From an uncultured virus (IMG/VR IMGVR_UViG_2585428076_000002) (taxonomy: Duplodnaviria; Heunggongvirae; Uroviricota; Caudoviricetes), in the IMG/VR virus record IMGVR_UViG_2585428076_000002: a DNA stretch of 64,000 nucleotides; one strand, given 5' to 3'. The notes under the pieces are model-generated. The model searched no databases. It was given only the letters and a program-made list of their open reading frames with translations, and had not been told where the DNA came from. The translations under genes and the position numbers were made by a program. Below are positions 616 through 57,365 of this stretch, piece by piece (within the stretch, counting starts at the first letter, position 1; each line of letters starts with the position of its first letter).

Positions 616-628
616 TGTGCATTCCTCC

Positions 629-1749: not shown

Positions 1750-1764
1750 ACCTTGCGCACCTCC

Positions 1765-2172: not shown

Positions 2173-2187
2173 TTCAGGTATCTCCTT

Positions 2188-2355
2188 TCAGTCATCGTAA
2201 TCATCGGCGCCGCCCAGCAGGTTCTCTTTCCAATCACGGTATCTGGGAACTCTGCTGAGGGCTTTATCAAGGAGCCAGAGGACAAAGCCTCCGGCTCCGA
2301 AGTAGGCACCGAGCAAGCAAAGGATGAACAGCCCGGTAAACAGGTCTTCACTCAT
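2188..2355 (-). CDS. Small membrane protein (55 aa, not in ORF track)
   Basis: MSEDLFTGLFILCLLGAYFGAGGFVLWLLDK..., one hydrophobic helix; fills an operon gap. Confidence 0.55.
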   Translation of the reverse strand: MSEDLFTGLFILCLLGAYFGAGGFVLWLLDKALSRVPRYRDWKENLLGGADDYDD

Positions 2356-2479
2356 CACAGTCCACCTGCTTTCTCAGCATACGGGCGTACTCGTTGTACG
2401 CATGGACGCTCTCACGGTCATTCCAGTCGGTCTGCTTGTGCTTCTCTGCGAGGAGCGCATAGTATTCGTCTCTCGTCAT
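2348..2479 (-). CDS. Small hypothetical protein (43 aa, not in ORF track)
   Basis: MTRDEYYALLAEKHKQTDWNDRESV...; ATGA overlap with upstream peptidase stop, GAGGAGG RBS. Confidence 0.55.
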   Translation of the reverse strand: MTRDEYYALLAEKHKQTDWNDRESVHAYNEYARMLRKQVDCDE

Positions 2480-5114: not shown

Positions 5115-5559
5115 TTTCTTTTAACCTCCTCAGCATTCCGTCGTTGATGTAATTCGCAAAGATCCAGTTGCGGCAGGTTCTCTGCCGGCGGGTGAAGTGT
5201 CCCGGCGGGTTCGGGACGTAGCTCTGGAAATCAACCCGCTTGGCGTCCGTAATCGTCAGCCGGATATTGGCGTTGTCCACGAACACCGTCTCGCCCGGAG
5301 CGGGAATGAACGCCACGTGTGTGTTCTGGTGGTAATTGAACCCCGCGCTCAACCCGCAGAGGTAATACGCGACCGCTTTGGGATTCTCTTTCACGTCGAT
5401 GTCGATGAGCGCGTGGGGCTGGTGCAGGGTCCCGTGATAGACCCTGCTGTCCCGATTGCCGATGAAACACTCGGCGCAGCATTTGTAGATGTTCACGGCC
5501 TGAATGTCCCTCAGCCAAAAGAACTCGTGGTATCGCTTAACTTCCAATGTCAGGTGCAT
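5101..5559 (-). CDS. Hypothetical protein, paralog 1 of a three-member family
   Basis: Shares FFWLR, CCAxCFIG, YYLCGLS, NTHVAF, CRNWIFANY with 19160-19594 and 52928-53398. Confidence 0.8.
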   Translation of the reverse strand: MHLTLEVKRYHEFFWLRDIQAVNIYKCCAECFIGNRDSRVYHGTLHQPHALIDIDVKENPKAVAYYLCGLSAGFNYHQNTHVAFIPAPGETVFVDNANIRLTITDAKRVDFQSYVPNPPGHFTRRQRTCRNWIFANYINDGMLRRLKENGHE

Positions 5560-5984
5560 TATTCAGCCTCCTTTTTCTTTCGCCCGCGCTTCTTCGGCGC
5601 GGGTTTTTCTTTGGTCTTTTTCGTAACCGGCTCGCTGACCGCCCAGCTCAACTGGACCTTGAAGCTGCCGTCGCCCATCCGCTCGATGGTGCAGTTCCAG
5701 CCGGCGCCATCGGCGACCATCTCGTCCTCCTCGCGGTTGGTGCTCGCCGCAGCGTCCTGGATTTTCGCCAGCATCTCGTCAGCGACGATTTGCAGCGCCT
5801 CCGCAGCCTTGAGATATTCGCCCAGCCAATAGGCGGCTTTCTTGTAGCTGCGGACGGTGTAGGTCGCCTCAGCTTGGAGGCGGCCCGTCCCGATCACGAT
5901 GTCCATGACGTTCTCGTGCTCGACGAAATTCGCCTGTCCGGGTTCGTGAACCTTGACCCAACGGCCCTGTTTCAACTCTGCCAT
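5559..5984 (-). CDS. Hypothetical protein with basic C-terminal tail
   Basis: 141 aa ORF, AAGGAGG RBS. Confidence 0.7.
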   Translation of the reverse strand: MAELKQGRWVKVHEPGQANFVEHENVMDIVIGTGRLQAEATYTVRSYKKAAYWLGEYLKAAEALQIVADEMLAKIQDAAASTNREEDEMVADGAGWNCTIERMGDGSFKVQLSWAVSEPVTKKTKEKPAPKKRGRKKKEAE

Positions 5985-6073
5985 GATTTTGTCCTCCTTG
6001 ATTTATGTACTTGCCCTGTCATCATCAGGCCGGGTGGGGCAGTTCCCGGCGACGCCCTTTCGGGCGTTTCGAC

Positions 6074-6220
6074 TTAGATTGCTTTCAGCCGCTTTATGTA
6101 CTCGCGCTCAGATTTGATGTATTCAATGTCGTCCTCACTGGGACCGTTCTCGGATTGAATCAGTTCTTCAATGAACCTGCGCAACGCGCCCTCCATGATG
6201 TCGATGATTTTCTTATCCAT
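6074..6220 (-). CDS. Small hypothetical protein; first gene of the currently promoterless leftward operon
   Basis: MDKKIIDIMEG... with AAAGGAG RBS about 45 bp from att site A. Confidence 0.6.
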   Translation of the reverse strand: MDKKIIDIMEGALRRFIEELIQSENGPSEDDIEYIKSEREYIKRLKAI

Positions 6221-6249: not shown

Positions 6250-6295
6250 TTTTGCTCAAATCCAGCAGACTATTGAGATAACAAAGATTGCAAAA
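6250..6295. other. att-like site A (left end of invertible segment), core GA at 6275-6276
   Basis: Left arm caaatccagcagac matches caaatgcggcagac of site B at the same distance from the core; lies at the strand switch. Confidence 0.75.
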
Positions 6296-6766
6296 ACCGT
6301 GATAATCCTTGCTATGGCGCCGCTATTGCTTACAGCCTGCGGAACAGACGCTGGCAGCCAAACGGTTTTGCCGAAACCCGAGATGGCGACCAGCCAGCCG
6401 GAGTATCCAGAGGTAAAAGAAACGCCCGTCCAGAATGTGTGGACGGACGAAGAACTTGAGGCTATGGTGCTCACCCTTGCGGGAGAGTGCTATGACGACA
6501 AGGAACACGATAAACGCCTTGTCTGTGAAGTGATTCTGAACCGTGTCAGTGATGGCCGGTTTGGAGATTCCGTTTTAGAAGTTGTCTCCGCGCCGAATCA
6601 GTTTTCGGGCTATTGGGAGCAGTCCCGTGAGATTACCGAGAACGACTACGACGTGGCGACCGAGGCTCTTGAAGACTGGTATGGAAGCGGATGTGAAGCC
6701 CTTTCCGATTACCTGTTCTTTGTGGCCGGTGACAACCGTGAGAACGTATTCCGTTGTGAATACTAA
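6277..6766 (+). pseudogene. SleB/Hydrolase_2-type cell wall hydrolase lipoprotein lacking its own RBS/start (start lies at 18151-18153 on the - strand)
   Basis: Lipobox LLLTAC; LAGEC..VCEVILNRV..VVSAPNQFS motifs; no RBS or ATG before the basic N-region of the signal peptide. Confidence 0.7.
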
Positions 6767-6794
6767 TCAATAAATTTCTAAGGAGGACAAAACC

Positions 6795-7241
6795 ATGCTC
6801 GAAATGAAACTCACCATCGAGGCGCCCGAACTGGCAAACGCGCTGAACAATCTCGCCGCTGCTCTGGGTGCAAGACCTTTCCCGACCGCACAGCAGGCCC
6901 CCGCAGCGGCCTCTACGCAGCCCCAGCCCGTTGTGCCTCAGCAGGCTCCCGCCGCACCTGTGCAGCAGCCTATGCCGGCTCCCGCTCCTGTGGCTCCTAT
7001 GCCTGCTCCTGCCACCACTGCGCAGCCTAATACGCCCGTGGCCGGCGTACCTCTCGCACAGCCGCCCAAGTACACGGTGGACCAGATTATGGCTGCCGGC
7101 GCTCAGCTGATGGACGCAGGCAAGGTGAACGACCTGATGAACCTGCTCCACTCCTTTGGCGTTCAGGCTGTCATGGATCTGAAACCTGAGCAGCTGGGCG
7201 CGTTCGCTACCGCTCTGCGTGATATGGGGGCGAAGATTTGA
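6795..7241 (+). CDS. Pro/Ala/Gln-rich hypothetical protein of the DUF2800 replication module
   Basis: 148 aa, AAGGAGG RBS, low-complexity linker. Confidence 0.75.
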   Translation: MLEMKLTIEAPELANALNNLAAALGARPFPTAQQAPAAASTQPQPVVPQQAPAAPVQQPMPAPAPVAPMPAPATTAQPNTPVAGVPLAQPPKYTVDQIMAAGAQLMDAGKVNDLMNLLHSFGVQAVMDLKPEQLGAFATALRDMGAKI

Positions 7242-8416
7242 GCGCCCATGCGCTCCTCTCGCCGTCCAGTGCGCACCGCTGGCTGAACTGCCCTCTGGCC
7301 CCACGGCTTGAGGCGCAGTTACCTGAAAAGCCAAGCGAGTATGCGAGAGAGGGAACGATTGCGCACAGCATCTGTGAGGTCAGCGCCAAGCTGCACTTCA
7401 AGAAAATCAAGAAGACCGAGTACAACAAGGTCGTAAAAAAGTACAAGGCCGATCCGCAGTGGGACGACGAGATGTTGCAGACTGCGGAAACCTATTCCGA
7501 GCACCTTGCTGAAAGAGCGATGGGATTCGACAACGAGCCATACATCGCTTTCGAGGTTAAGGTGGACATATCCGATGTGGTCCCCGAAGCCTTTGGCCGA
7601 TGCGACTGCATCATGTTCGGCGGTGATACTCTCGTCATTACCGACTATAAGCACGGGAAAGGCGTACCTGTTTCCGCGTCGGACAACCCGCAGCTGAAAC
7701 TCTACGCTCTCGGAGCGTTGAAGCTCTACCAGCCACTTTTCGGCAGCTCGCTGAAAAACGTGGAAATCACCATCGACCAGCCCCGTATCAATCTCTACGA
7801 CACGTGGGGATGTAGCGTCGAAGACCTGCTCGCTTGGGGCGAGGAAATCAAGCCGAAAGCGATGATGGCCTACATGGGCTTTGGCGAGTACCACGCAGGC
7901 AGCTGGTGTCAATTCTGCCGAGCCAACGGCATCTGCAAAGCTCAGGCCGCACAGCAGATTGGGGCGTTCGACGATTTCAAAGACGCGGTTGAGAACCGCA
8001 ACGTGGCACTTCTCTCCCCTGATGGCATGAGTGATGTGCTTGCACGGGGCAAGGACCTCGTGGCGTGGTATGAGGCCGTGAAGAAGCGGGCGCTTGAGGT
8101 CATGCTTAACGGCGAGAAAATCCCCGGCTGGAAAGTTGTCGAGGGCCGCAGCTCCCGTGTTTGGAGCAATCAGGATAAGGCTCTCGATACGCTCATCGAG
8201 AACGGTATTGACCGGGCAGTCATTTACGACAGTGTTCCCAAGACACTGGCGCAGCTCGAAAAGGTTCTGGGCAAGAAGAAGTTCGAGGAGCTGGTCGGCG
8301 AGTTTGTTGTGAAGCCGCAGGGCAGCCCGACCCTCGCTGATGAGAATGATTCCCGCAAGGAGTTCAGCAGTGCCGCCGCCGATTTTGCGGAGGTGGCTGA
8401 CAATGGCTCGAAATAA
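7238..8416 (+). CDS. DUF2800-family PD-(D/E)XK (Cas4-like) exonuclease
   Basis: HALLSPSSAHRWLNCP, FGRCDC, TDYKHGKG, QLKLYALG, WCQFC..C. Confidence 0.85.
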   Translation: MSAHALLSPSSAHRWLNCPLAPRLEAQLPEKPSEYAREGTIAHSICEVSAKLHFKKIKKTEYNKVVKKYKADPQWDDEMLQTAETYSEHLAERAMGFDNEPYIAFEVKVDISDVVPEAFGRCDCIMFGGDTLVITDYKHGKGVPVSASDNPQLKLYALGALKLYQPLFGSSLKNVEITIDQPRINLYDTWGCSVEDLLAWGEEIKPKAMMAYMGFGEYHAGSWCQFCRANGICKAQAAQQIGAFDDFKDAVENRNVALLSPDGMSDVLARGKDLVAWYEAVKKRALEVMLNGEKIPGWKVVEGRSSRVWSNQDKALDTLIENGIDRAVIYDSVPKTLAQLEKVLGKKKFEELVGEFVVKPQGSPTLADENDSRKEFSSAAADFAEVADNGSK

Positions 8417-9314
8417 ATACCCCGGCTACTGCTATTGCTGCGGCAGTTGGGTAGAACCCGGATATGGACACTTCGAGAGGCACAACGGCGGCTGGCGCAT
8501 TAAATGCGTGAAATGCGCCAGCGGTCGGGTCCTCACAGAAGATGACCCCGGAGTTAAGTGGGCAAGAAAAACAGTGCAGAGTGAAATCGAAAGGAGAAAA
8601 ACAGTTATGTATAACAATGTGCCTACGAAAGTTCTGACCGGCGAGGTTCGCCTGTCCTATGTCAATCTCGTGCAGCCGAGGGTGAATAACAACGACCCCA
8701 CGGCTACCCCCAAGTATTCCGTGACACTGCTTATCCCCAAGACTGACACGGCGGTCAAGCAGAACATCGACGCCAGCATCGAGGCTGCCGCTGCCGATGC
8801 GCAGGGCAAGATTTGGAACGGCGTTCGCCCTCCTGTCATGCCTATCCCCATCCATGACGGTGATGGCGTCCGCGAGAACGGTACGCCCTACGGTCCTGAG
8901 TGCAAGGGCTGCTGGGTCATTACGGCCAGCTCCAAGAACAAGCCGCAGGTAGTCCACCAGAGCGACATCAACACCGAGCTGCTCCCGCAGGACATTTACA
9001 GCGGTATGTACGCCCGCGTGACGATCAACTTCTTCGGCTACAACCGTGCGGGCAAGCGCGGTGTGGGCTGCGGGTTGGGCAACGTGATGAAGACCCGCGA
9101 CGGCGAGGCACTTGCCGGCGGCGCCAGCGCAGCAGCTGATTTTGCCGGTGTCGGTATGGAGGCCGGCGCTCCCGCTACTCCCGCCTATGGCGCGGCTATG
9201 CCAGCCACTCCGGGGCAGATGGCATATCCCAACACGGGTATGCAGCAGCCAAACCCGCTGGGCGTCCAGCCGGGGGCAATCAATCCCTTAACCGGCCAGC
9301 CGTACTTTGGATAA
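8403..9314 (+). CDS. DUF2815-family ssDNA-binding protein (internal start 8607) in frame with an upstream zinc-finger peptide
   Basis: VRLSYVNL..KYSVTLLIPK..IYSGMYARV..GVGCGLGNV..DGEAL motifs; second RBS before ATG 8607. Confidence 0.8.
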   Translation: MARNKYPGYCYCCGSWVEPGYGHFERHNGGWRIKCVKCASGRVLTEDDPGVKWARKTVQSEIERRKTVMYNNVPTKVLTGEVRLSYVNLVQPRVNNNDPTATPKYSVTLLIPKTDTAVKQNIDASIEAAAADAQGKIWNGVRPPVMPIPIHDGDGVRENGTPYGPECKGCWVITASSKNKPQVVHQSDINTELLPQDIYSGMYARVTINFFGYNRAGKRGVGCGLGNVMKTRDGEALAGGASAAADFAGVGMEAGAPATPAYGAAMPATPGQMAYPNTGMQQPNPLGVQPGAINPLTGQPYFG

Positions 9315-9321
9315 ATCGAGC

Positions 9322-9362
9322 AAAGGCGCACGGCCACCCATAAGTGGTCGTGCGCCTTTTTC
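9322..9362 (+). terminator. Intrinsic terminator-like hairpin after the SSB gene
   Basis: aaaggcgcacggccac / gtggtcgtgcgccttt followed by a T run. Confidence 0.6.
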
Positions 9363-9381
9363 ATTAAGGAGGATAAACGCT

Positions 9382-9612
9382 ATGAAGAAACTGACCTGTC
9401 CTGTGTGTGGGACCGAATTCATTCCGCAAATTGCGGATCACTACGTAGCTGTGACCGATAATGCCGGTTCCGGTCTGAGCCGTCTCGCTGGGAGCGCGAA
9501 GCCTGAAACCTATTACGACGCTTTTGACTGCCCGCAGTGCGGCTGCCAGCTGCGTCCGAACACTCGTCTGGTGGAGGTTCCTGAAAAGGAGGAAGACCAT
9601 GAAAAGAGCTGA
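9382..9612 (+). CDS. Small zinc-ribbon protein
   Basis: CPVC...CPQC, AAGGAGG RBS. Confidence 0.7.
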   Translation: MKKLTCPVCGTEFIPQIADHYVAVTDNAGSGLSRLAGSAKPETYYDAFDCPQCGCQLRPNTRLVEVPEKEEDHEKS

Positions 9613-9919
9613 GATTTTAGAGGCTGCTCGTATCTGCGTCTGCGGGGAACGCCAGCAGGACTACGGCACACCGGAGAACAACTTTGAAACCATCGGTCTG
9701 TTGTGGGGCGTCTACTTGCGGGCTGCTCATCCTGAGCTGGCTAAGGTCATGGCTATCAATCACATCAACGCCAAAGACGTGGCTACTATGATGGGGCTGC
9801 TAAAGGTAGCTCGAATTGCTACCGGGTACAAGGATGACAACTTTGTGGACCTCGCTGGTTACGCAGCCTGTGCCGGCGAGATTGCAGCCGCTGAGAGAGG
9901 AGGCGGCGACCATGACTAA
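9599..9919 (+). CDS. DUF6378-like phage protein
   Basis: R..DYGTPENNF..I..LW...LLKVAR...DNFVDLAGYAAC. Confidence 0.75.
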   Translation: MKRAEILEAARICVCGERQQDYGTPENNFETIGLLWGVYLRAAHPELAKVMAINHINAKDVATMMGLLKVARIATGYKDDNFVDLAGYAACAGEIAAAERGGGDHD

Positions 9920-10268
9920 CGGTGTATTCCGAATCGAATATCCGACAGGTTATATGGAGCTGAATGTCAGAGAGTTCTTCGCCAACGCGAATAAGAAGCG
10001 GATGACAAAGGTTCTCAAGCTGGCGAAGCAATATTGCAGCGACATCCGCAGGGAAGAACTTATCAGCACAATGCGGTCTGAGGTTGACCGGCTGAACGAA
10101 GTGGTTAAGAAGCTGGAAAGTCTGAGACTGTCCGAACAATATCATCTGCTGGCATTCTTCCCGCAGGCGCGGATTGAGCCGTCCAGTTATGAAAAAGCCT
10201 TGCGCCGGCAGAGGGATAAACTCGCAGAGAGCGTGGCTCTGATTAAGGACGAGAGGTGGGACGGATGA
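9912..10268 (+). CDS. Hypothetical protein
   Basis: GAGGAGG RBS, operon packing. Confidence 0.65.
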   Translation: MTNGVFRIEYPTGYMELNVREFFANANKKRMTKVLKLAKQYCSDIRREELISTMRSEVDRLNEVVKKLESLRLSEQYHLLAFFPQARIEPSSYEKALRRQRDKLAESVALIKDERWDG

Positions 10269-12253
10269 CGCATATCTCGATTGATATTGAAACATACAGC
10301 AGCGTCCCTATCGCAAAGGCCGGGGCGTACAAGTACGTGCAAAGCCCTGACTTTGAGGTTCTGCTGTTCGCATACAGCGTAGATGGTAGCCCTGTGGAAA
10401 TCGTGGATCTGGCGCAGGGAGAGCTGCTGCCGGAATGGTTGTTTGACGCTCTGAGTAATCCCGCTTACATCAAACACGCCTACAATGCGGCGTTCGAGTG
10501 GTACTGTCTCTCAAAGTTCTGTGGGCGTCTGCTGCCGGTGGACCAATGGCGGGACACGATGCTTCACGGCCTCTACTGCGGCTATACGGCGGGCTTGGAC
10601 GCAACCGGCAAGGCTCTGGGCCTCCCCGCCGAAAAGCAGAAGCTCTCGGTCGGCAAAGCGCTTATCCGCTATTTCTGCGTCCCCTGCGCCGCCACGCAAA
10701 GCAACGGCGGCAGGACACGGAATCTCCCCAAGCATGACCCTGATAAGTGGGAGCTGTTCAAGACTTACTGCAAGGGCGATGTTACGACCGAAATGGAGAT
10801 TGACCGCAGGCTGTCGAACTTCCCTGTCCCTGCGGACATCGAGAAGCAGTGGCAGACCGACCTCCTCATCAACGCGAGGGGCGTTGCGGTAGATATGCAG
10901 ATGGTGCGCGGGGCGTTGGAAATCGACGCCGCCTCCCGCGATAAGCTGACGGCAGAAGCTGTCTCCATCACCGGCCTTGAGAATCCGAACAGCGTGTCAC
11001 AGCTCAGCAAATGGCTTGAGACCAACACGAACCAGCCGGTGGGCGACCTGCGGAAAGACACGGTTGCGGCGATGCTTGACAGCAAAGTCGTGACCGGTCC
11101 CGCAGAGAGAATGTTGGAGATTCGTCAGGAGCTTGGCAAGACCAGCACGAAAAAGTATGACGCTATCGAGGCTGCTGTGTGCGGCGATGGGCGTGTCCGG
11201 GGGCTGCTTCAATTCTACGGAGCGAACCGCACCGGCAGATGGGCGGGACGGCTCGTGCAGGTGCAGAACCTACCGAGGACCTACATCGACATGAAAACGC
11301 TCCCGTGGGCGCGGAGCGCGGTTAAGGAGCGAAGCGCCGATAAGCTGCGGTGTATGTACGGCTCTGTGCCTGATACTCTCTCGCAGCTCATCAGGACATC
11401 GTTTATAGCGTCCAAAGGCAACACCTTAATCGACGCGGATTTCAGCGCCATCGAAGCACGGGTTATTTCGTGGCTGGCGGGAGAGCAGTGGCGGCTCGAA
11501 GTATTCAGGACGCACGGCAAAATTTACGAGGCGTCTGCCAGTCAGATGTTCGGGGTCCCGATTGACCGAATCAAAAAAGGGAATCCCGAATACGAGCTGC
11601 GGCAGAAAGGCAAGGTCGCTGAACTCGCCCTCGGCTATCAAGGCAGCACGGGCGCACTGATTGCGATGGGCGCTCTGCGAATGGGCATACCCGAAGATGA
11701 CCTACCGGACATCGTTTCTCGCTGGCGTGACGCAAACAGGCGCATTGTGGACCTGTGGTACGCTGTGGAGAACGCAGCGGTATCAGTCATTCAGACGGGA
11801 CGGCCTGCGGGCGTGAGGAACCTCATCTTCGCCCGCGAGATGGACATTGAACACGGGGTGGACTTCCTGACAATAACACTGCCGAGCCGCAGAAAGCTGT
11901 ACTACGCAAACCCGCAGCTCGGCGTAAACTCGTGGGACAAGCCCTCCATCTTATATAGCGGCGTGAACCAGACAACCAAGCAGTGGACGCAGCTTGAAAC
12001 CTACGGTGGCAAGCTGGTGGAGAACTGCATTCAGGCAATCGCTCGCGACTGTCTTGCGCTTGCGATTGAGCATTTGGAGGCCGCCGGGTATCAGGTGGTG
12101 TTCCATGTGCATGACGAAGTTGTGATAGATTGTCCTGCCGACCGAGCGGATCTGGACGATGTGGTGCGGCTGATGACGCAGCCCATTCCGTGGGCGCCGG
12201 ATTTGCCGCTGAACGCAGATGGCTGGGTTGGGGACTTCTTTAGAAAGGATTGA
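10265..12253 (+). CDS. Phage family A DNA polymerase
   Basis: Exo I DIET; motif A ADFSAIEAR; motif B RQKGKVAELALGY; motif C HVHDE. Confidence 0.95.
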   Translation: MTHISIDIETYSSVPIAKAGAYKYVQSPDFEVLLFAYSVDGSPVEIVDLAQGELLPEWLFDALSNPAYIKHAYNAAFEWYCLSKFCGRLLPVDQWRDTMLHGLYCGYTAGLDATGKALGLPAEKQKLSVGKALIRYFCVPCAATQSNGGRTRNLPKHDPDKWELFKTYCKGDVTTEMEIDRRLSNFPVPADIEKQWQTDLLINARGVAVDMQMVRGALEIDAASRDKLTAEAVSITGLENPNSVSQLSKWLETNTNQPVGDLRKDTVAAMLDSKVVTGPAERMLEIRQELGKTSTKKYDAIEAAVCGDGRVRGLLQFYGANRTGRWAGRLVQVQNLPRTYIDMKTLPWARSAVKERSADKLRCMYGSVPDTLSQLIRTSFIASKGNTLIDADFSAIEARVISWLAGEQWRLEVFRTHGKIYEASASQMFGVPIDRIKKGNPEYELRQKGKVAELALGYQGSTGALIAMGALRMGIPEDDLPDIVSRWRDANRRIVDLWYAVENAAVSVIQTGRPAGVRNLIFAREMDIEHGVDFLTITLPSRRKLYYANPQLGVNSWDKPSILYSGVNQTTKQWTQLETYGGKLVENCIQAIARDCLALAIEHLEAAGYQVVFHVHDEVVIDCPADRADLDDVVRLMTQPIPWAPDLPLNADGWVGDFFRKD

Positions 12254-12257
12254 CGAT

Positions 12258-12557
12258 ATGACAAGAAAAGACAGAGAGGAAAACCCCGGCGAATCCTTTG
12301 ACGGCGGTTATCACCTCTACGCAAAAGAGCAGCACGATGCGCGTGTTGCAAAGAACTCCGACCGGATTCAGTACGCCATAGATCAGTTCCAGCGGAACAA
12401 CATCGAGTTCGTGCTGAAAAACGCCCAGACCGGCCATTTCCACTGCCGCCGGCAGTCGGATGATAAGCTGTTTCAGTTCTGGGCGGGAACCGGCAAAATC
12501 AAGGGCTACGACTATGTTCGCGGCATCCACGCGCTGATTAAGCTGCTCAAAAGGTAG
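12258..12557 (+). CDS. Hypothetical protein
   Basis: ORF with RBS between the polymerase and primase genes. Confidence 0.65.
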   Translation: MTRKDREENPGESFDGGYHLYAKEQHDARVAKNSDRIQYAIDQFQRNNIEFVLKNAQTGHFHCRRQSDDKLFQFWAGTGKIKGYDYVRGIHALIKLLKR

Positions 12558-12565
12558 GTGAGATT

Positions 12566-12787
12566 ATGGCGCACGATAAGAAACCACATCTCTATAAGAA
12601 CTCGGAGGGCTACAACGACCCGACTGTGGGCGAGGCGATGAGCAACATCGAGGCCGAGGAGCGCCGGGTGCTTGAGCGGATAAGCGCACTCATCCCGATT
12701 ATGAAGAAGACCGCTGAACTCGTCGGTTTCGAGGTGGTCGGGCGCATAATCCTCATGGATAAGGAAACCGGCAAGAAGTACAAGTAA
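12566..12787 (+). CDS. Small conserved phage protein
   Basis: KNSEGYNDPT..A...GFEVVGRI.L.DK.TGK.Y pattern common in Clostridia phages. Confidence 0.7.
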   Translation: MAHDKKPHLYKNSEGYNDPTVGEAMSNIEAEERRVLERISALIPIMKKTAELVGFEVVGRIILMDKETGKKYK

Positions 12788-12803
12788 AGGAGGGCTGGGC
12801 TTA

Positions 12804-15218
12804 ATGCAATACGACAGAGAGATAACGATAACTGTCGGCAACAACCGAAAAAGTGTAAACTGGCAGCCCCAGTCCATCATGCTGTCAGAGTTCTACGAGA
12901 AGCTCAGGATTCCGAACCGCTCTACCGAGACTATGCAGGAATACCTGAACCTGAAAAAGTCGGAGCAGGACGATAAAAAGGACATCGGCGGGTTCGTCGC
13001 CGGTACGCTGTCCGGCCCGCGCCGCAGAGCGGGGGCCGTGACAGGGCGTGACATCATCACGCTGGATTTCGACACGATACCGCCGGGAGGCACAGATGAA
13101 ATCCTGAAACGGGTAGACGGGCTTGGGTGCGGCTACTGCATCTATTCCACACGCAAGCACTCGCCCGCAAGCCCCCGTCTCAGGATATTAGTCCCTTTTG
13201 ACCGGACGGTCACTGCGGACGAATATGAGCCGTCTGCGCGGTTTGTGGCGTCCCTTATCGGCATAGAGTTCGCGGACCCGACCACGTTTGAGGCCACACG
13301 CCTGATGTATTGGCCGAGCTGCTGCTATGACAGCGACTATGTGTTTACCTTTAGCGACAAGCCGCTGCTTGACGCTGACGGGCTGCTGCACATGATTGAC
13401 GAACGGCTTGGGGACTGGCGGGACGTGTCGAAATGGCCGCAGGTTCCGGGCGCGGATAACGCCTATAAGAAGCTGGCGATGAAGCAGAGCGATCCTCTGA
13501 GCAAGGCAGGCGTGGTGGGCGCATTCTGCCGCACATACGACATCTACGGTGCGATGGACACCTACCTCGACGGTATTTACGAGCCGGTGGACAATTCACG
13601 CGGGCGTTTTACCTACCTCGGAGGAACGACAACAGGCGGCGCTGTGGTGTACGACAACGGGATGTTCCTCTATTCCCACCACTCCACCGACCCCTGCTGC
13701 GGCAGGCTTGTGAATGCGTTCGATTTGGTGCGTATGCACAAGTTCGGGGAGATGGACGACGGGGCTGACCCGAATACGCCCACGAACCGGCTGCCATCGT
13801 ATGCGGCGATGTGCAACCTCGCCATTGAGGACCCAAAGGTCTCACGGCAGCTGGCAAAGGAACGGGCTGATTCTGCGGTCAGCGATTTTCAGGGACTGAA
13901 CGAGGCGCCGGCTGCCGAAGCCGAGAACTTCGACTGGACGATGGACTTGGAGCTGAACAAGCAGACCGGTACGATAAAGGCCACCATCGACAATATCTGG
14001 CTGATTCTTGAGAACGACCCGCTGCTCAAAGGCAAGTTCGCCTTAAATGAGTTTGCGGGGCGCGGAGAGATCCTCGGCGACCTGCCGTGGAGCGCCTTTG
14101 AGAAGCGGCGCGGCTGGACAGACAATGACAATCAGGGGCTGTACTGGTACTTCGAGAAAGTCTATAAAATCACAGGCAACGGGAAAATCGACGGCGCGCT
14201 GTCCCTGCACAGCGAGAAGCACAAGTTCAACGATGTGCGCAACTACCTCTCATCCCTGACGTGGGACGGCATTTCCCGCCTCGATTCCCTGCTGATTGAC
14301 TATCTCGGCGCGGAGGATAAGCCTTATGTGCGGGCGGTCACGAGAAAGGCTTTCACGGCGGCCGTGGCGCGGGCTATGGAGCCGGGGTGCAAATATGACA
14401 CCATGCTTATCCTTACGGGGCCGCAGGGCATCGGAAAGTCCACGCTGCTGGACCGGATGAGCAAGGGCTGGTTCAACGACGGCATCAGGACATTCGAGGG
14501 CAAGGAGGCAAGCGAGCTGCTGCAAGGCGTGTGGCTGGTGGAAATCGGCGAGCTGGACGCTTTCAGACGGACAGATGAAGCCCGCATCAAGCAGTTCCTC
14601 AGCCTGCGTTCTGACCGATTCAGGGCGGCCTACGGGCGGCACGTAAAGGATATACCGCGATGCTGTGTGTTCTTCGGCACGACGAATACCCCTGTGTTCC
14701 TGCGGGACAAGACGGGCAATCGCCGGTTCTGGCCTGTGGATGTGGGGGTGGTCCCACGCACGAAAACGGTATGGCGGGACCTCGATGACGAGCTGGACCA
14801 GATTTGGGCTGAGGCAGTTATGCGCTGGCGGCTGGGAGAAACGCTGTACCTGACAGGCGAGTTGGAGGAGCTGGCGAGAGCCGAGCAGGAAGATCACAGA
14901 GAGGTTAGCAGCAAGGAGGGCATCGTCCTTGACTTCGTTGAGAAGCTGGTCCCAGAGGACTGGCAGAAGTGGTCGCTGGACAAGAGGCGGCTGTTCCTCA
15001 ACGGCACAGTCGAGGGGTCTGCAAACCTTGTAAAGCGGGACCGCGTGTGTGCGCTGGAAGTCTGGTGCGAGGCGTTCGGCGGTCAGCCAAAGGATTTCAA
15101 GTATGCCGAGGCGACCGAGATAAACGACATTCTTCGGTCTATGCCGGGGTGGGAAAAGTCCTCGAACGGGCTGCGGTTTGGCTACTGCGGATACCAGCGT
15201 GGGTTCCTCCGTCGCTGA
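12804..15218 (+). CDS. VirE/VapE-family primase-helicase
   Basis: N-terminal LDFD..YSTRKH..PRLR primase motifs; Walker A GPQGIGKST; GTTN..FLRDKTGNRRF. Confidence 0.9.
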   Translation: MQYDREITITVGNNRKSVNWQPQSIMLSEFYEKLRIPNRSTETMQEYLNLKKSEQDDKKDIGGFVAGTLSGPRRRAGAVTGRDIITLDFDTIPPGGTDEILKRVDGLGCGYCIYSTRKHSPASPRLRILVPFDRTVTADEYEPSARFVASLIGIEFADPTTFEATRLMYWPSCCYDSDYVFTFSDKPLLDADGLLHMIDERLGDWRDVSKWPQVPGADNAYKKLAMKQSDPLSKAGVVGAFCRTYDIYGAMDTYLDGIYEPVDNSRGRFTYLGGTTTGGAVVYDNGMFLYSHHSTDPCCGRLVNAFDLVRMHKFGEMDDGADPNTPTNRLPSYAAMCNLAIEDPKVSRQLAKERADSAVSDFQGLNEAPAAEAENFDWTMDLELNKQTGTIKATIDNIWLILENDPLLKGKFALNEFAGRGEILGDLPWSAFEKRRGWTDNDNQGLYWYFEKVYKITGNGKIDGALSLHSEKHKFNDVRNYLSSLTWDGISRLDSLLIDYLGAEDKPYVRAVTRKAFTAAVARAMEPGCKYDTMLILTGPQGIGKSTLLDRMSKGWFNDGIRTFEGKEASELLQGVWLVEIGELDAFRRTDEARIKQFLSLRSDRFRAAYGRHVKDIPRCCVFFGTTNTPVFLRDKTGNRRFWPVDVGVVPRTKTVWRDLDDELDQIWAEAVMRWRLGETLYLTGELEELARAEQEDHREVSSKEGIVLDFVEKLVPEDWQKWSLDKRRLFLNGTVEGSANLVKRDRVCALEVWCEAFGGQPKDFKYAEATEINDILRSMPGWEKSSNGLRFGYCGYQRGFLRR

Positions 15219-15541
15219 AACATTGGGGATGAAACATCTGGGGCTGATTTCACCATAAGTCTAACATCAGGAAAAATTAGAGAAGTTTAGGCGGGAAATT
15301 CAACCCAATGTTTCACCCCTTGAATGTTTCAATGTATCGGCCAATGTTTCACCAATGTTTCGGCTAAAACCCGCACCGTTACTGGCTTTTTGAGCTTTTG
15401 AAACATTGAAACATTCATTCTTAATAGAGAGAGAAAATAGGGATATTAGAAAGGATTTAGAATTATAGTCGCACGACTTACGCGCCTAAAGCGCCTAACG
15501 CGCCTATACGCGCGTAAAGTATAGAAACACCAATGTTTCAG
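15214..15541 (+). repeat. Iteron-rich non-coding element copy 1 (probable replication origin)
   Basis: About ten TGAAACAT(T)/(A)ATGTTTCA repeats in both orientations directly after the primase-helicase gene; homologous to 37387-37680. Confidence 0.75.
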
Positions 15542-15550
15542 GAGGAAAAC

Positions 15551-15841
15551 ATGAATGAAAGTCGAATTGAACGCCGTCTTGTTGATGGCGTGAAGAAGTT
15601 GGGAGGTATGTGCCTAAAGTTCGTAAGTCCCGGCACACCGGGCGTTCCTGACAGGCTCATCATCACTCCAACTGGACGAATCATTTTCGCAGAGCTGAAA
15701 ACCGAAACCGGCCGCTTGGCGAAGATCCAGCGGTACACGATTGGAGAGATGCAAAAGCGCGGCGCCGATGTGCGCGTGGTAAAAGGCATCGACGAGGTTA
15801 TGCGGCTGCTTGCGGAAATTGAGGGAGGTGGGGGCCAATGA
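15551..15841 (+). CDS. VRR-NUC domain nuclease
   Basis: ESRIE..L...KFVSPG..GVPDR..FAELK. Confidence 0.9.
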   Translation: MNESRIERRLVDGVKKLGGMCLKFVSPGTPGVPDRLIITPTGRIIFAELKTETGRLAKIQRYTIGEMQKRGADVRVVKGIDEVMRLLAEIEGGGGQ

Positions 15842-17208
15842 AGTTTGTCCCTTATCCGTATCAGCAGTATTGCATTGACAGCATTATTTATAACAGGGCC
15901 GTCGGCTTATTCCTCGACATGGGCTTGGGCAAGACGGTTATTACCCTGACCGCCATTCACGACCTGCGGTATAACAGATGGGAGGTTTCAAAGCCCCTCA
16001 TCATCGCGCCGAAAAAGGTTGCCGAGGCCACGTGGACTACGGAGGCAAAGAAGTGGGAGCACCTGAAAATGATGAGGGTCGTCCCTGTTCTCGGTACAGC
16101 TCAGCAACGCATCCGTGCTTTGGCTACGCCTGCGGATGTCTATGTGGTGAATCGTGAGAACGTGCAGTGGCTGGTCGAGCATTTCAAAAATGCGTGGCCG
16201 TTTGACATGGTGGTACTGGATGAAAGTTCCAGTTTCAAGAACTCCCAGAGCAAGCGGTTCAAATCCTTGAAGCTGGTGCGCAGCCGAATAAAGCGCATCG
16301 TGGAGCTGACGGGTACTCCGTCCAGCAACGGGCTTGAGGATTTGTGGGCGCAGATTTATCTCTTGGACGGCGGCGCACGGTTGGGCAAGACCCTCGGCGC
16401 TTATCGGGACAAATACTTCGTCCCCGGCAGGAGAAACCGCACGACAATTTTCAATTACTCGCCAAAGGACGGCAGTTTCGAGATGATTAAGCAGGCCATC
16501 AGCGACATCTGCATCAGCATGAAAGCAGCGGACTACCTGACCTTGCCTGATATGCTGGTGAACAATGTGCCGGTAGCTCTTGACGCTGCGGCGGCAAAAG
16601 CCTACGCACAGCTTGAGACGGAGCTGCTTTTGCAGGTGGACGAGGACACGATAACCGCCGGCAGTGCGGGAGTTCTGACAGGAAAGCTCTTGCAGCTTTG
16701 CAACGGGGCGATCTACAACGAGAACAAAACGGCGGTCAAAGTCCACGACTGTAAAATCGACGCTTTCTTGGAGTTGATTGAGCAGCTGCACGGGCAACAC
16801 GCCCTTGTGTTCTACAACTTCCAGCACGACCGGGACAGGCTGGTCGAGGCTTTGGCAAAATACGACCTGCGCGTCAGGGTTTATTCTCAAGCGAAAGACG
16901 AGCAGGATTGGAACAACGGAGAAATCGACATCTTACTTGCGCACCCCGCGAGCTGCGGCTACGGCCTGAATTTACAGCGCGGCGGCCATCACGCCATCTG
17001 GTTCGGGCTGACGTGGAGCTTGGAGCAGTACGAGCAGGCAAACAAGCGCCTGCATCGTCAGGGGCAGGAGCATCCGGTCATCATCCACCACCTGATTGTG
17101 CAGGGCGGCATGGATGAGCAGGTAGTCGAGGCTCTCGAAAACAAGGGCGATATGCAAAACGCCCTGATGGACGCCTTGCGAGTGCGTATCAGTAAACTTC
17201 GCAGTTAA
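15838..17208 (+). CDS. SNF2-family helicase
   Basis: DMGLGKT, DESS, LTGTP, GLNLQ, QANKRLHRQGQ. Confidence 0.9.
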   Translation: MKFVPYPYQQYCIDSIIYNRAVGLFLDMGLGKTVITLTAIHDLRYNRWEVSKPLIIAPKKVAEATWTTEAKKWEHLKMMRVVPVLGTAQQRIRALATPADVYVVNRENVQWLVEHFKNAWPFDMVVLDESSSFKNSQSKRFKSLKLVRSRIKRIVELTGTPSSNGLEDLWAQIYLLDGGARLGKTLGAYRDKYFVPGRRNRTTIFNYSPKDGSFEMIKQAISDICISMKAADYLTLPDMLVNNVPVALDAAAAKAYAQLETELLLQVDEDTITAGSAGVLTGKLLQLCNGAIYNENKTAVKVHDCKIDAFLELIEQLHGQHALVFYNFQHDRDRLVEALAKYDLRVRVYSQAKDEQDWNNGEIDILLAHPASCGYGLNLQRGGHHAIWFGLTWSLEQYEQANKRLHRQGQEHPVIIHHLIVQGGMDEQVVEALENKGDMQNALMDALRVRISKLRS

Positions 17209-17220
17209 AAAAGGAGGTGC

Positions 17221-17700
17221 GTGGCGATGAACAAAGAGGAAATCGCTGAGGTGGCGCGGGTTGCGGCACAGGAAGTTCTTGCCAGAAAGGACGCTATCAT
17301 TGACGAGGAGTTTGACGCTCGGTATCACGACGTTAATCTCCTGATGAAGAACTACCGGAAGTTGCGGGCGCACTACGCCCATGTTTCCCCGGAGACATTG
17401 GAGGTAAGCTGCATCTGCTCCATGCGCCGGAAGACAGGGCTGATGATGAGCCATGTGGACAAGATGCTGGCAGCGTATGAGGCTCTGTGCAAAGAGGCGG
17501 TGAATCCCGATGAGGCCCGCCGGTGGGAGGCGCTCAATCTGCGGTACATCGACGAGGACAGGCTTAGCGTGGATGAAATCGCCGAGCGGCTGAACATCGA
17601 CAAGCGGACGTTCTACCGGGACATCAACCGTGCGATGGAGGACATGGCCGTTCTGCTGTTTGGCATCGAGGCCATTGGCTCGTGGAAACACAAGAAGTAA
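17221..17700 (+). CDS. Transcriptional regulator with C-terminal HTH (possible late activator)
   Basis: LRYI..LSVDEIAERLNIDKRTFYRD; last gene of the replication module. Confidence 0.7.
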   Translation: MAMNKEEIAEVARVAAQEVLARKDAIIDEEFDARYHDVNLLMKNYRKLRAHYAHVSPETLEVSCICSMRRKTGLMMSHVDKMLAAYEALCKEAVNPDEARRWEALNLRYIDEDRLSVDEIAERLNIDKRTFYRDINRAMEDMAVLLFGIEAIGSWKHKK

Positions 17701-17702
17701 CG

Positions 17703-17735
17703 AATCAGGGAGCTGACAAGGCTCCCTGATTTTTT
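17703..17735 (+). terminator. Intrinsic terminator of the replication module
   Basis: aatcagggagc / gctccctgatt followed by a T run. Confidence 0.8.
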
Positions 17736-17787
17736 ATTCTCCGTTGCTTTTCGAGAAAATTTTTCTGAAAAAATTTTAGGAAAAGCA

Positions 17788-17816
17788 TTGACGAAAACGA
17801 CTTAAAGTGCTATAAT
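17788..17816 (+). promoter_or_regulatory. Strong SigA promoter near the right end of the invertible segment
   Basis: TTGACG-17bp-TATAAT, extended -10, AT-rich UP region; near-identical context to the promoter at 48-76. Confidence 0.8.
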
Positions 17817-17853
17817 AAGAATGTAAAGAAAAAAGGAAAAGCCCGTAAGGAGG

Positions 17854-18126
17854 TTGAACAGAATGAATGACTGCATCAAAGCTGAAATGGAATACCGCGA
17901 ATGGCGTGAATGCCCGCTTTGGTATTGCGTGAAGACGCTGCTCAGAGCGGACGGCAAGATGGAAAGCGAGATTGTTTCCGACGAGAAAACCAAAATCCCC
18001 ATCGCCATTCAGAGCCTTGAGAAACCGCAGGATGGCGTGTTTGAGGACGCGAGCGGCACGACATATTACACCTACCATCAGGGATATGAGGCGGCAGCGA
18101 AGCAGGTAGCCGCCGCGAGCATATAG
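17854..18126 (+). CDS. Hypothetical protein; stop codon lies within the att site B arm
   Basis: ~90 aa ORF after the promoter and AAGGAGG RBS. Confidence 0.7.
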   Translation: MNRMNDCIKAEMEYREWRECPLWYCVKTLLRADGKMESEIVSDEKTKIPIAIQSLEKPQDGVFEDASGTTYYTYHQGYEAAAKQVAAASI

Positions 18127-18163
18127 GCAAATGCGGCAGACCTTTTCAGTCATTTGCAACTCC
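18121..18163. other. att-like site B (right end of invertible segment), core TC at 18146-18147; contains an orphan ATG with RBS on the - strand
   Basis: 31/43 ungapped identity to site C (57366-57408); - strand reads AGGAG-ttgcaa-ATG ACT GA. Confidence 0.75.
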
Positions 18164-18378
18164 TACTCCACCACCGCCTCCCGGCGGCTTTTTCTTTGCC
18201 TGAAATCGTATTGGCACAGGAATAACTTGTCTCCGAGGGATGTTTCGCGGTAATATACTCCGCTTTCGTACCACTCGCGCAGTATTCTTTCGCCCTCCCT
18301 CATTTCAGGCATACCGGACTTCGCCTGCTGTGCAAGCTCCGTCGCAACCGCGAGTAGAACAGAGGTGGCGGCGGTCAT
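18163..18378 (-). CDS. Small hypothetical protein downstream of cro (candidate recombination directionality factor)
   Basis: 71 aa, ATGA overlap with cro; function inferred from position only. Confidence 0.6.
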   Translation of the reverse strand: MTAATSVLLAVATELAQQAKSGMPEMREGERILREWYESGVYYRETSLGDKLFLCQYDFRQRKSRREAVVE

Positions 18379-18581
18379 TCTTCTTGCTCAGCGTCGTCGG
18401 CCAAAAGCTCCTCGATGGTGCAGCCGTACAGCTTTGCAAGAATGGGCAGCTTGTCCGCTCGCGGCTTAGCAAGACCGCGCTCCCACTTGCTTACAGCGGA
18501 TTCCTGCACACCGACGATCTTTGCGACCTCTCGCTGTGTGGGAATCGCCCCGCGAAGTCTACGCTCTCTCATAACATTCAT
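18375..18581 (-). CDS. Cro-like XRE HTH regulator
   Basis: TQREVAKIVGVQESAVSKWERG...LAKLYGCTIEELL; divergent from the repressor. Confidence 0.85.
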   Translation of the reverse strand: MNVMRERRLRGAIPTQREVAKIVGVQESAVSKWERGLAKPRADKLPILAKLYGCTIEELLADDAEQEE

Positions 18582-18632
18582 TGTTCCACCTCCTTTAGTG
18601 TCCTGCGGGTCGCTTTCTTTACTTACAGTCTT

Positions 18633-18661
18633 ATTATAGCACTTCATTTCCTCAATGTCAA
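18633..18661 (-). promoter_or_regulatory. Lytic (cro) promoter
   Basis: Perfect TTGACA-17bp-TATAAT with extended -10 on the - strand. Confidence 0.85.
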
Positions 18662-18697
18662 CTCCCATTCTTGAATTTTTCCCGAAAAAATCCTGCA

Positions 18698-18726
18698 TTG
18701 ACAACTTGAATTAAAAGACATATAAT
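18698..18726 (+). promoter_or_regulatory. Repressor/integrase operon promoter
   Basis: Perfect TTGACA-17bp-TATAAT; cttgaatt direct repeat at 18670 and 18706 may be an operator. Confidence 0.85.
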
Positions 18727-18752: not shown

Positions 18753-19163
18753 ATGGACGGGTTCGGAGAACGACTTAGACGGTTGAGAAAAGACTGCGAC
18801 ATCACACAGAGCCAGTTGGCAGAAGTCATCGGCGTTGTGCCGTCCGCAATCGGGAAATACGAGCGCATACCGCAGGCGTTCCCGAGCGTGGAGGCGTTGA
18901 TAAAGATAGCCGACTACTTCAATGTGAGCATCGACTATCTGCTGAGAGGGACGCAAACCGTCCCTGCCGTTGAGAACAATATCAGCGGCCAGCTAACAAA
19001 CAGCCCATTCATCCAAGCCAACCACGGAGGCGTGGTGATTAACGGAGAGCAATCCATTTCGCCGGAGGCGATGGAGCTGCTGCATATCTACGAACAGCTG
19101 AGCGGCAGGGAGCGGTTAAAACTGCTTAACTTTGCCGTCGAGTTAGAGGAGGGTACAAAATGA
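18753..19163 (+). CDS. CI-like XRE repressor
   Basis: FGERLRRLRK..ITQSQLAE..IGKYE..IADYFNVSIDYLL. Confidence 0.85.
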   Translation: MDGFGERLRRLRKDCDITQSQLAEVIGVVPSAIGKYERIPQAFPSVEALIKIADYFNVSIDYLLRGTQTVPAVENNISGQLTNSPFIQANHGGVVINGEQSISPEAMELLHIYEQLSGRERLKLLNFAVELEEGTK

Positions 19164-19594
19164 AAGTATCACTGGACATTAAAAAGAAGTGCGCATTCTT
19201 CTGGCTGCGGGCAATCCGCTCCGCACGTATCGACAAATGCTGTGCGAAATGCTTTATTGGCGACGCCTTTCACGAGATATTCGAGGGGACGCGCTACAAA
19301 GACAAGGCTCATGTGGAGCTGGACATTGAACCGGACGCAAGGGTAAAAGCCTACTATCTCTGCGGGCTGAGCAACGGCTTTAAGTATGACGAGAATACGC
19401 ACGTGGCTTTCGTTCCGTGCGAGGGACAGAATATTGAGATTGAAAATGACCGGATTCGGCTGGTGATTACGGATGCTCGCCAGATTGACTTCCAAAGCTA
19501 CCAGCCCCACCCAGAGGGCGAATTTACCGAGGAGCAGCGCACCTGCCGTAACTGGATCTTCGCCAACTACCTGTTAGACGGGATGCCGCTGTGA
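19160..19594 (+). CDS. Hypothetical protein, paralog 2 of the three-member family
   Basis: Same motifs as 5101-5559; overlaps both the repressor and integrase genes. Confidence 0.8.
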   Translation: MKVSLDIKKKCAFFWLRAIRSARIDKCCAKCFIGDAFHEIFEGTRYKDKAHVELDIEPDARVKAYYLCGLSNGFKYDENTHVAFVPCEGQNIEIENDRIRLVITDARQIDFQSYQPHPEGEFTEEQRTCRNWIFANYLLDGMPL

Positions 19595-26288: not shown

Positions 26289-26440
26289 AGGGACTGGTAT
26301 CCTCCTTTTAGCTGTACGAGCTTTCCAACGCCTCTTTCGAGGTGTACTAACCCGCTCCCTGAACTGCTTATCTTCACCGAGAGGTGCGCGACTACCTGTG
26401 CCGTGGTTTGGAGGTTTGTCAGCAAGACACATAAAAGGGT

Positions 26441-26577
26441 GCGGCAGCCGATGTTCGTGTTCGAGTTCGACACGCTGTTGTAGTTGACGTAGAACAAACC
26501 GTGGTTGGTGTTGCGGTTATAGTTGCCACCAACGTAGAGGCACGGGTTCGACGAGTTGAAGTTCCAGTTATCGCACG
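26441..26577 (-). repeat. DGR template repeat (TR), 137 bp
   Basis: AAC-rich; differs from VR at 17 positions, every one an A in TR on the coding strand. Confidence 0.97.
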
Positions 26578-57363: not shown

Positions 57364-57365
57364 GT

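Follow-up and report, generated by a model that had tools for sequence, protein, structure and literature searches.

An inverted replication module in a temperate phage, probably locked off in lysogeny by the phage's own large serine integrase

Why should a phage carry its replication genes against the direction of the adjoining operons, behind no recognizable promoter and with a first gene that lacks a start? This question is raised by the 64,000-nucleotide stretch analyzed here (the window), which belongs to an uncultured virus of the Caudoviricetes (IMG/VR record IMGVR_UViG_2585428076_000002) and corresponds to G000:C33:121485-185484. The window holds a 57.6-kb prophage of a gut bacterium, which extends from L002:19816, just outside the left edge of the window, to window position 57390. 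The prophage is of a temperate, myovirus-like type, and its - strand block from 57375 to 21052 contains ParB/methyltransferase genes followed by terminase, portal, capsid, contractile tail, reverse transcriptase, and lysin genes. We consider it probable that the integrase of this phage inverts the replication module and that the module is locked in the inactive orientation during lysogeny; the enzyme, the directionality factor, the timing, and the regulatory effect are parts of this view that we infer. Hereafter, the present orientation is called OFF and the flipped orientation ON.

Hybrid-like junctions around the replication module

A preliminary description of this DNA had placed a + strand replication block at 6277-18126 between - strand operons, and the genes were found there, with - strand operons on both sides. 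The segment, its ends, and the genes next to them are as follows.

6277-18145, + strand: invertible segment of 11.9 kb, opposite to the rest of the genome when compared with the circular relative G006:C186
6250-6296: junction J1, resembling an attR-type hybrid, with a P-type arm at 6250-6274 (TTTTGCTCAAATCCAGCAGACTATT), the core GA at 6275-6276, and a B-type arm at 6277-6296, which is the 5' end of the hydrolase frame
18122-18166: junction J2, resembling an attL-type hybrid in inverted orientation, with a P-type arm at 18122-18145 (TATAGGCAAATGCGGCAGACCTTT on the + strand), the core TC at 18146-18147 (GA on the - strand), and a B-type arm at 18148-18166
6275-6766, + strand: gene for a SleB-like cell-wall hydrolase lipoprotein with signal peptide and lipobox (PF07486, Hydrolase_2, 2e-11), start-less in the present orientation
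18375-18581, - strand: gene for a Cro-like helix-turn-helix (HTH) protein (HTH_3, 2.4e-11), with its promoter at 18661-18633 (12/12)
18166-18378, - strand: gene for p71, a protein of 71 amino acids (aa), closing the two-gene cro operon of the OFF state and always beside the B-type arm
17788-18126, + strand: promoter P17788 (TTGACG-17-TATAAT) with the gene of an 87-aa protein (17863-18126), facing J2 in the OFF state
178-6220, - strand: operon for a 48-aa protein, p141, p152, a 558-aa protein, a peptidase-like protein, and others, with a PemK-like protein at its end; a promoter of its own is absent at J1

According to Pfam matches, the segment contains the body of the hydrolase gene (Hydrolase_2) and genes for a 148-aa protein, a DUF2800 nuclease, an Enc34-type single-stranded DNA-binding protein, PolA, a VapE primase-helicase, a VRR-NUC protein, and an SNF2 helicase. 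It also holds the gene of a 159-aa HTH/sigma-like protein, a terminator, P17788, and the 87-aa gene.

The hydrolase frame opens with GAG ATA ACA AAG and runs on to the lipobox with neither an ATG nor a Shine-Dalgarno sequence in frame. Upstream, it is open solely by read-through of an antisense gene, and its in-frame GTG at 6248 and ATT at 6272 both lack a ribosome-binding site. The - strand gene at J1 starts with the ATG at 6220 behind AAGGAG, leaving about 55 nt to the body of the hydrolase gene. Near-consensus promoters were found at 18661-18633 (- strand, 12/12), 18698-18726 (+ strand, 12/12), and 17788-17816 (+ strand, 11/12) and nowhere else, and the best score for a promoter facing the replication module near 6276 was 9/12. 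The start-less hydrolase and the junction devoid of a recognizable promoter were thus as previously described.

The B-type arm of J2 holds, on the - strand, the orphan ATG (18153-18151) and AGGAG (18164-18160) that had been noticed behind cro and the 71-aa gene; this AGGAG-ATG unit overlaps the stop of the latter. Read on from the orphan start, the frame is antisense to the 87-aa gene, and third-position G+C marked the 87-aa gene as the real one of the two. In relatives, a ribosome-binding site, a start, and GA are kept at J2 with varying letters (ATG or TTG; AGGAG, GGTGA, or GGAGG), while the frame past the core is unconserved, meeting a stop in L028 and running through a promoter in G003-type phages. 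Because the ribosome-binding site and start are conserved while the frame behind them varies, the start at J2 has the look of a detached gene head and not of a small gene.

The arms common to J1 and J2 are in direct orientation, and their other halves are unlike each other. The 14-mers at 6257-6270 and 18128-18141 are identical at 12 of 14 positions. The pattern CAAATNCNGCAGAC occurred twice in the window (0.01 copies expected), and none of 100 shuffles reached two copies. In the 3.27-Mb genome, it occurred four times (0.39 expected), and J1, J2, and attL were three of these copies. The pattern was derived from J1 and J2 themselves, and the independent support is the third copy, which lies exactly at the prophage end. 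The fourth exact 14-mer, at C20:516732, is in an unrelated gene start (LLDL codons) and was taken as a chance match.

The attachment sites of the prophage, of which the preliminary description had not known, and the lysogeny genes were located as follows.

L002:19814-19840 (G000:C33:121298-121324), just left of the window: attL, read as GATGTCC-AA-GATGGTCTGCTGAATTTGCCTATAT at L002:19807-19840
57365-57410: attR, with the P arm TATATAGGCAAATTCGGCTATCCATC (57365-57390), the core AA (57391-57392), and then the host B' arm TTTCATG...
18753-20994, + strand: lysogeny operon of repressor (18753-19163), p144 (19160-19594), and integrase (19591-20994) genes with 4-nt overlaps, behind the promoter at 18698-18726
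19591-20994, + strand: large serine integrase of 467 aa (PF00239, 2.7e-38; PF07508, 1.8e-17; PF13408, 1.6e-13)

Two 24-nt arms (TATAGGCAAATnCrGC...ATC) point outwards at the prophage ends with an AA core next to each, so that each end consists of one P arm and one B arm that have only the core in common. The IMG/VR relatives G002, G003, and G004 cease to be homologous slightly outside the left window edge and at about 57,000. The contigs G004 and G010 have no intact attP and carry such arms at both ends, which circularize into attP, and an intact palindromic attP with 24-nt arms around AA was found in G006 and G008. This site and the internal attP-like site of G006 (core TC) are pseudo-palindromes of two half-sites around a 2-nt core, and attP half-sites of the A118 family are given as about 25 bp in the relevant portion of PMC3783163. 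In G003, the 2 nt behind the arm are AT, palindromic and unlike the expected non-palindromic core. With the core defined by arm symmetry as the 2 nt after ...AT(C/T), the cores were AA at both prophage ends, GA at J1, and TC at J2; since TC is the reverse complement of GA, J1 and J2 pair in inverted orientation.

The arm of J2 equals that of attL at 24 of 32 positions in register, and its non-P half read from the core (AGTCATTTGCAACTCC) agrees with the host attB arm (TTTCATGTGCAATTCC) at 12 of 16 positions in the same register, as counted by eye. The internal sites had been supposed to be of integrase type, and their match to the arms of the true attP, attL, and attR agrees with this. Judging from the arm identities, the GA/TC cores, and the parental forms present in G006, L108, L115, L121, and L023, J1 and J2 look like attR/attL-type hybrids of an internal attP-like and attB-like pair, inverted and with its own central dinucleotide.

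The recombinase at 19591-20994 had been regarded as a large serine integrase, and Pfam and PDB matches assign it to the TP901-1/A118 type. It contains a resolvase catalytic domain, a recombinase domain, and a zinc ribbon with a coiled coil, and it matched the TP901-1 integrase (6.6e-40) and, over residues 136-466, the C-terminal domain of the A118 integrase (1.9e-20). It is the only recombinase among the 82 window open reading frames scanned, and none of the other serine recombinases of the genome (20 serine-recombinase-like matches) was more than 45% identical to it. Among the 120 protein matches listed for the integrase, identity was at least 90% throughout. In 50,697 records of cultured phages, no match to p71 was found and the best match to the integrase had 44.6% identity; these records thus offer no virion genome of the group in which to read the packaged orientation.

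Both orientations in public runs and relatives

An exchange at GA 6275-6276 and TC 18146-18147 had been predicted, and the search for both junction forms that was proposed with it was made on contigs of public runs; both recombinant junctions were present there, exactly at the GA crossover. In run X16, a contig of 3475 nt (depth 32.5) joins 6277 to 18146 on opposite strands and consists of 434 nt of cro-p71 followed by 6277-9317. The other joint, between 6276 and 18145 on opposite strands, was found in X16 (depth 2.6) and X19 (depth 3). These are metatranscriptome runs of two different studies, and three letters at each ON joint fit either side. The ON junction contig is the deepest piece of the region in X16, where depth is a poor measure. 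Window-like OFF junctions were bridged by the DNA metagenome run X10 and the RNA run X15; X10 contained no ON joint, and X16 had no coverage at 19036-19500. A contig of X10 (depth 4.8) joins 6279 to 17820 on opposite strands with a short side of 31 nt, which is not an att crossover.

The ON arrangement was complete in G006:C186, a contig of 57,656 nt from a rumen metagenome-assembled genome (MAG), which is circular because its ends overlap by 141 nt. In this free relative, attP is intact, and so is the symmetric attP-like site that the exchange had been expected to regenerate; it is flanked by the homologues of the 87-aa and 6220 genes. The hydrolase stands behind cro-p71, in frame with a ribosome-binding site and start as forecast, and in other ON relatives the two are likewise joined in frame to the hydrolase. 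The anticipated connection of the cro promoter to the replication module is found there, and the unit equivalent to P17788 points through the attP-like site into the 6220-gene homologue, which is the second connection that had been proposed. All genes are on one strand save the lysogeny operon, consistent with the expectation that nearly all lytic genes would be co-oriented. Further ON forms were L023 (an IMG/VR fragment, by gene order) and the metagenome contigs L108 (63,988 nt), L115, and L121, and OFF contigs of the L108 phage type, L110 and L117, were also present. Both orientations therefore exist, with the crossover at GA, and related genomes do not always have the arrangement of the window.

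The OFF arrangement is widely conserved. The window and the relatives G002, G003, and G004 remain collinear through both junctions, with 69-94% nucleotide identity over aligned blocks, which rules out a one-off inversion or an assembly error at the junctions. The OFF arrangement is ancestral, being the standard state of the whole phage group and not an event in this strain. We also considered G003 as a circular permutation and rejected this; its 9-kb tail is unlike late genes and carries Abi_2 and Toprim cargo, marking a truncated prophage contig. Among 32 hydrolase loci (20 from IMG/VR and 12 from GTDB genomes), the arm with GA was recognized at no more than 4 mismatches in 20 positions in 27 loci and with 6-7 mismatches in 3 more, and it sits immediately before the hydrolase signal peptide in 30 of the 32. 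Of 67 metagenome p71 loci, 54 were OFF by script, 6 more OFF by eye, 3 cleanly ON, 1 a chimera, and 3 unclear. The 33 IMG/VR p71 loci comprised 31 that were OFF by script, L168, which was OFF-like by eye, and none that was ON. These locus sets overlap and are not independent. Together with 72 clusters of p71 proteins, they show that the group is widespread in gut and rumen metagenomes.

Two contigs are broken at the junctions. The viral contig L148 stops precisely at the J2 core GA, and the metagenome contig L113 fuses the p71 terminator to the left flank of J1 (L113:2181-2260). They look like assembly breaks from mixed orientations.

Proposed switch and alternative explanations

We propose that one large serine integrase serves two orthogonal site pairs, with the AA core used for integration and the GA core for inversion. 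A mismatched central dinucleotide blocks serine-integrase recombination. The internal attP-like site would lie between the 87-aa gene and the 6220 operon, and the attB-like site over the hydrolase start behind cro-p71, the two forming an inverted pair. On lysogenic entry, the integrase, made together with the repressor, would both integrate the genome and invert the 11.9-kb segment, because integrase alone joins attP-type with attB-type sites. By the inversion, the cro promoter would lose the replication operon and P17788 the 6220 operon, and the hydrolase would be left with no start. According to the pertinent section of PMC3783163, integrase alone recombines only attP with attB, and recombination of attL with attR needs a directionality factor. 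The attL/attR-type products would thus be inert to the integrase unless the factor is made, and the OFF state would be locked, since the integrase is co-transcribed with the repressor and the products need that factor. Upon de-repression, the directionality factor would let the integrase flip the segment back and excise the phage.

OFF DNA would yield, after de-repression, only the Cro-like, p71, 87-aa, and 52-aa proteins, one of which should be the directionality factor. We tentatively name p71 as the best candidate; apart from cro, its gene is the only one that the cro promoter still serves in the OFF state. The p71 protein was present in all relatives examined, and the 87-aa gene is absent in G003-type phages. 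The 72 clusters homologous to p71 include none with a name, and p71 belongs to no Pfam or PHROG family.

The region past J2 contains a further element.

18174-18197, + strand only: terminator hairpin with a T-run, inside the 3' end of the p71 gene and just past J2 in the OFF state

This hairpin would halt transcripts from P17788 before they run antisense into cro in the OFF state, and both sides of its stem vary in four relatives with the pairing kept, as judged by eye. Because the terminator would guard cro from antisense transcription out of P17788, its presence suggests that OFF is a selected state and not an accident. Three promoters are homologous to one another, namely P17788, the cro promoter, and one further copy at window 75-45 (- strand); they have in common the elements TTGAC..AAGTGCTATAAT.AGA.TGTAA, with likeness in the -35/-10 region and in the bases transcribed first, and an upstream T-run/A-run. 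Each drives one or two small genes that end at an arm: cro-p71 at the B-type arm, the 87-aa gene at the internal P arm, and the 52-aa Cys-rich gene at attL. The upstream T-run/A-run is a palindrome-like element (18600-18700, - strand; 17740-17840, + strand; 10-110, - strand) and is likely a common operator.

Several observations weigh against a switch that is set by the integrase and kept OFF in lysogeny. ON is scarce in assemblies (2/32 hydrolase loci, 3/67 metagenome p71 loci, and 0/33 IMG/VR p71 loci). For this phage itself, the ON joints were obtained from RNA-library contigs, and such libraries may contain DNA; in two of the three joints, the depth is at most 3 and the short side is 27-33 nt. 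G006 is the only ON sequence with enough context to show non-integration. The motif statistic is weak, as 9 of 100 shuffles reached two copies of CAAATNCNGCAGAC when one mismatch was permitted. The hydrolase-side B-type arm agreed with the other host arm at 6 of 17 positions (counted by eye). The GCAAAT hexamer lies 14-19 nt from the core in the P arms and 5-10 nt in the left B arms, an offset of 9 nt. The A118 model, as outlined in the corresponding part of PMC3783163, predicts an offset of 5 nt between P and B arms. The p71, 87-aa, p144, p152, and 52-aa proteins gave no PHROG family, so that no directionality factor was recognized among them. In G008, finally, attP is intact in mid-contig (G008:C1:49731-49770) and both internal junctions are OFF (7266 and 59563), so that OFF also occurs on non-integrated or tandem DNA. 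The ends of the G008 contig are 3.3 kb apart, within the invertible segment, and this genome may be a tandem lysogen, an intermediate, or a sign that the two reactions are uncoupled. Because of G008, the rule that integrated DNA is OFF and free DNA is ON is not strict. The preliminary description had taken the prophage state for a DNA-level OFF lock written by the phage's own integrase, and this is largely supported; its sites, both orientations, and a free ON relative were found, a strict division into integrated OFF and free ON forms fails on G008, and the integrase is the enzyme that we infer.

G008 would also be expected if the integrase-driven inversion were real but worked as a stochastic phase switch in lysogens, setting for example the rate of spontaneous induction, untied to integration and excision. 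The end of L148 at the core and the junction chimera in L113 suggest mixed populations within single samples, which would favor such a switch, and in metagenomes a single phage type can have contigs of both orientations. Against this, attL/attR-type sites are not reversible by integrase alone in the account excerpted from PMC3783163, and the back-switch would need a regulated factor; moreover, the sole ON genome with context, G006, is free and circular, and no ON junction occurred in any contig that also shows integration. We consider a phase switch of this kind unlikely. A fixed working order, in which the module is served by an unrecognized promoter and a non-ATG start and ON is a functionless by-product or artefact, is less probable still. 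This explanation would accommodate the strong predominance of OFF, the ATG that directly follows the core in some relatives, and the case of L051, in which a separate ribosome-binding site and ATG lie downstream of the site. It does not fit a best promoter score of 9/12 toward the module, a conserved orphan ribosome-binding site and start with no conserved frame, or the strong promoter of G003-type phages, which faces J2 with no gene behind it. Nor does it fit G006, a complete circular genome that is ON with both parental sites intact, or the ON junction contig being the deepest X16 piece of the region, poor measure as depth is.

The lowest probability is given to inversion by another recombinase, either the tyrosine integrase of the neighboring island (L002:13978-15150) or one of the host serine recombinases among the 20 serine-recombinase-like matches in the genome; both sources are at hand, but the internal arms copy the arms of the phage's own attP, and the switch accompanies the phage both in MAGs with different family labels and in a free circular genome with no match to another recombinase. 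Inversion of the replication module by the phage integrase, locked OFF in lysogeny, is thus the explanation we retain as probable. We also lean, with less assurance, toward the fuller view that this phage group stores its lysis-lysogeny decision in DNA, using a two-channel integrase to unplug the replication operon and a second early operon and to behead a lipoprotein gene; on induction, a small early protein, probably p71, would be needed to reconnect them.

Genomic setting and relation to known systems

A single Peptidase_M78 (ImmA/IrrE-like) frame is interrupted by the prophage at the HE..GH motif, with one half on either flank. From these halves and the arm/core structure of the ends, we conclude that a serine integrase placed the prophage in the immA-like gene of a different mobile element. 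An undivided Peptidase_M78 gene is present in the family relative G098, with only 41-48% protein identity. At the DNA level, the right flank matched 1 of 150 family genomes, weakly, and, as the target sits in another mobile element, an empty site was obtained only at the protein level. The split halves lie at window 57394-57696 (- strand) and L002:19511-19813 (- strand), and the gene of an XRE repressor (57702-58364) adjoins. The target element includes the tyrosine integrase mentioned above and Rha/AAA_23 genes from 58923 onward, and the insertion may disable the induction protease of that element. Direct repeats and a tRNA target were rejected for the prophage ends, as no repeat exceeded 12 nt (five exact 12-nt matches). 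A motif at window +71189 was likewise rejected as the right end; it is a chance match in coding-like DNA, and the true right arm, which was recognized by reading the sequence, has differences at 5 of 14 positions. The attP of the prophage itself is intergenic, behind the stop of the 52-aa gene and ahead of a terminator, and the repressor and integrase genes are intact. A hairpin with a T-run at window 57335-57364, read on the - strand, lies directly after the attP arm and ahead of the first late-region gene and is kept in G004.

Other genes of the prophage deserve mention. The lysogeny-operon protein p144 (19160-19594, + strand) has a paralogue in p152 (5101-5559, - strand), with about 55% identity by tblastn in relatives. 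The p152 operon is connected to a promoter in the ON state only, and neither protein has a Pfam or PHROG family. The 211-aa PemK/MazF-domain protein (178-813, - strand) and a MazE/AbrB-like protein (54097-54384, - strand) are encoded 53 kb apart in the prophage and would be about 4 kb apart in a circular genome. In the region 25092-28538 (- strand), the reverse transcriptase gene (RVT_1, 1.9e-11) adjoins a 618-aa tail-region gene and is probably part of a diversity-generating retroelement.

The closest parallels to the proposed switch are synthetic. The Bxb1 rewritable data module is reportedly an engineered memory operated by an integrase and a directionality factor. The phiC31 'latch', as presented in part of PMC6511857, is a synthetic inversion memory of integrase and directionality factor. 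As in these memories, a segment lies between inverted attP and attB sites, the integrase would set it, the integrase with the directionality factor would reset it, and the state is held in DNA. Unlike them, the phage switch appears to be natural, resides in the phage's own genome, and moves 11.9 kb of essential genes; its integrase would be shared with the normal integration sites by means of a different central dinucleotide.

Integration also rewrites phage genes elsewhere. The integration-dependent immunity of mycobacteriophages, reportedly set out by Broussard in 2013, places attP within a regulatory gene. In the Roseburia phage Shimadzu, attP lies inside the integrase gene, according to a portion of 10.1101/575076. 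In both cases, as here, prophage and free genome differ in coding capacity. Those genes are split at a single attP, whereas here a second site pair inverts a module and the true attP is intergenic.

Mu (G/Gin) and P1 (C/Cin) use small invertases that act on two like sites, switch freely in both directions, and control tail-fibre genes. The present system resembles them in having a phage-encoded serine recombinase that would invert phage DNA, but it differs in its unlike sites (hybrid versus parental), its integrase, its controlled direction, and its replication cargo. Its sole recombinase is the 467-aa integrase, in place of a Hin/Gin/Cin-like small invertase with a C-terminal HTH and two like inverted sites. 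The skin, SPbeta, and Clostridioides difficile sigK elements are moved by large serine recombinases, as described in sections of PMC5025042 and PMC8270828. There, too, a large serine recombinase and a small directionality factor rewire expression at the DNA level; excision restores a host gene in those systems, whereas the inversion proposed here would rewire the phage's own early operons. In the full text of open papers, a set that leaves subscription-only papers and supplements aside, we found reviews and mechanistic work on serine integrases but no report of an internal attP/attB pair inverting a phage module. The parts are known, and their natural use in this way is apparently undescribed.

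If the proposed switch is true, contigs that break or become chimeric at the junctions, such as L148 and L113, would be explained. A module facing away from its promoter and a start-less gene would be the normal state of these prophages and not decay, which matters for annotation. The phage would offer a natural counterpart of the engineered integrase/directionality-factor memories and, for DNA-writing tools, a natural case of one integrase with two non-cross-reacting site pairs together with a compact candidate directionality factor. Lysogeny would be held by a physical rearrangement besides the repressor, as a second layer of immunity that is independent of it, and views of prophage stability, spontaneous induction, and 'defective-looking' prophages would change.

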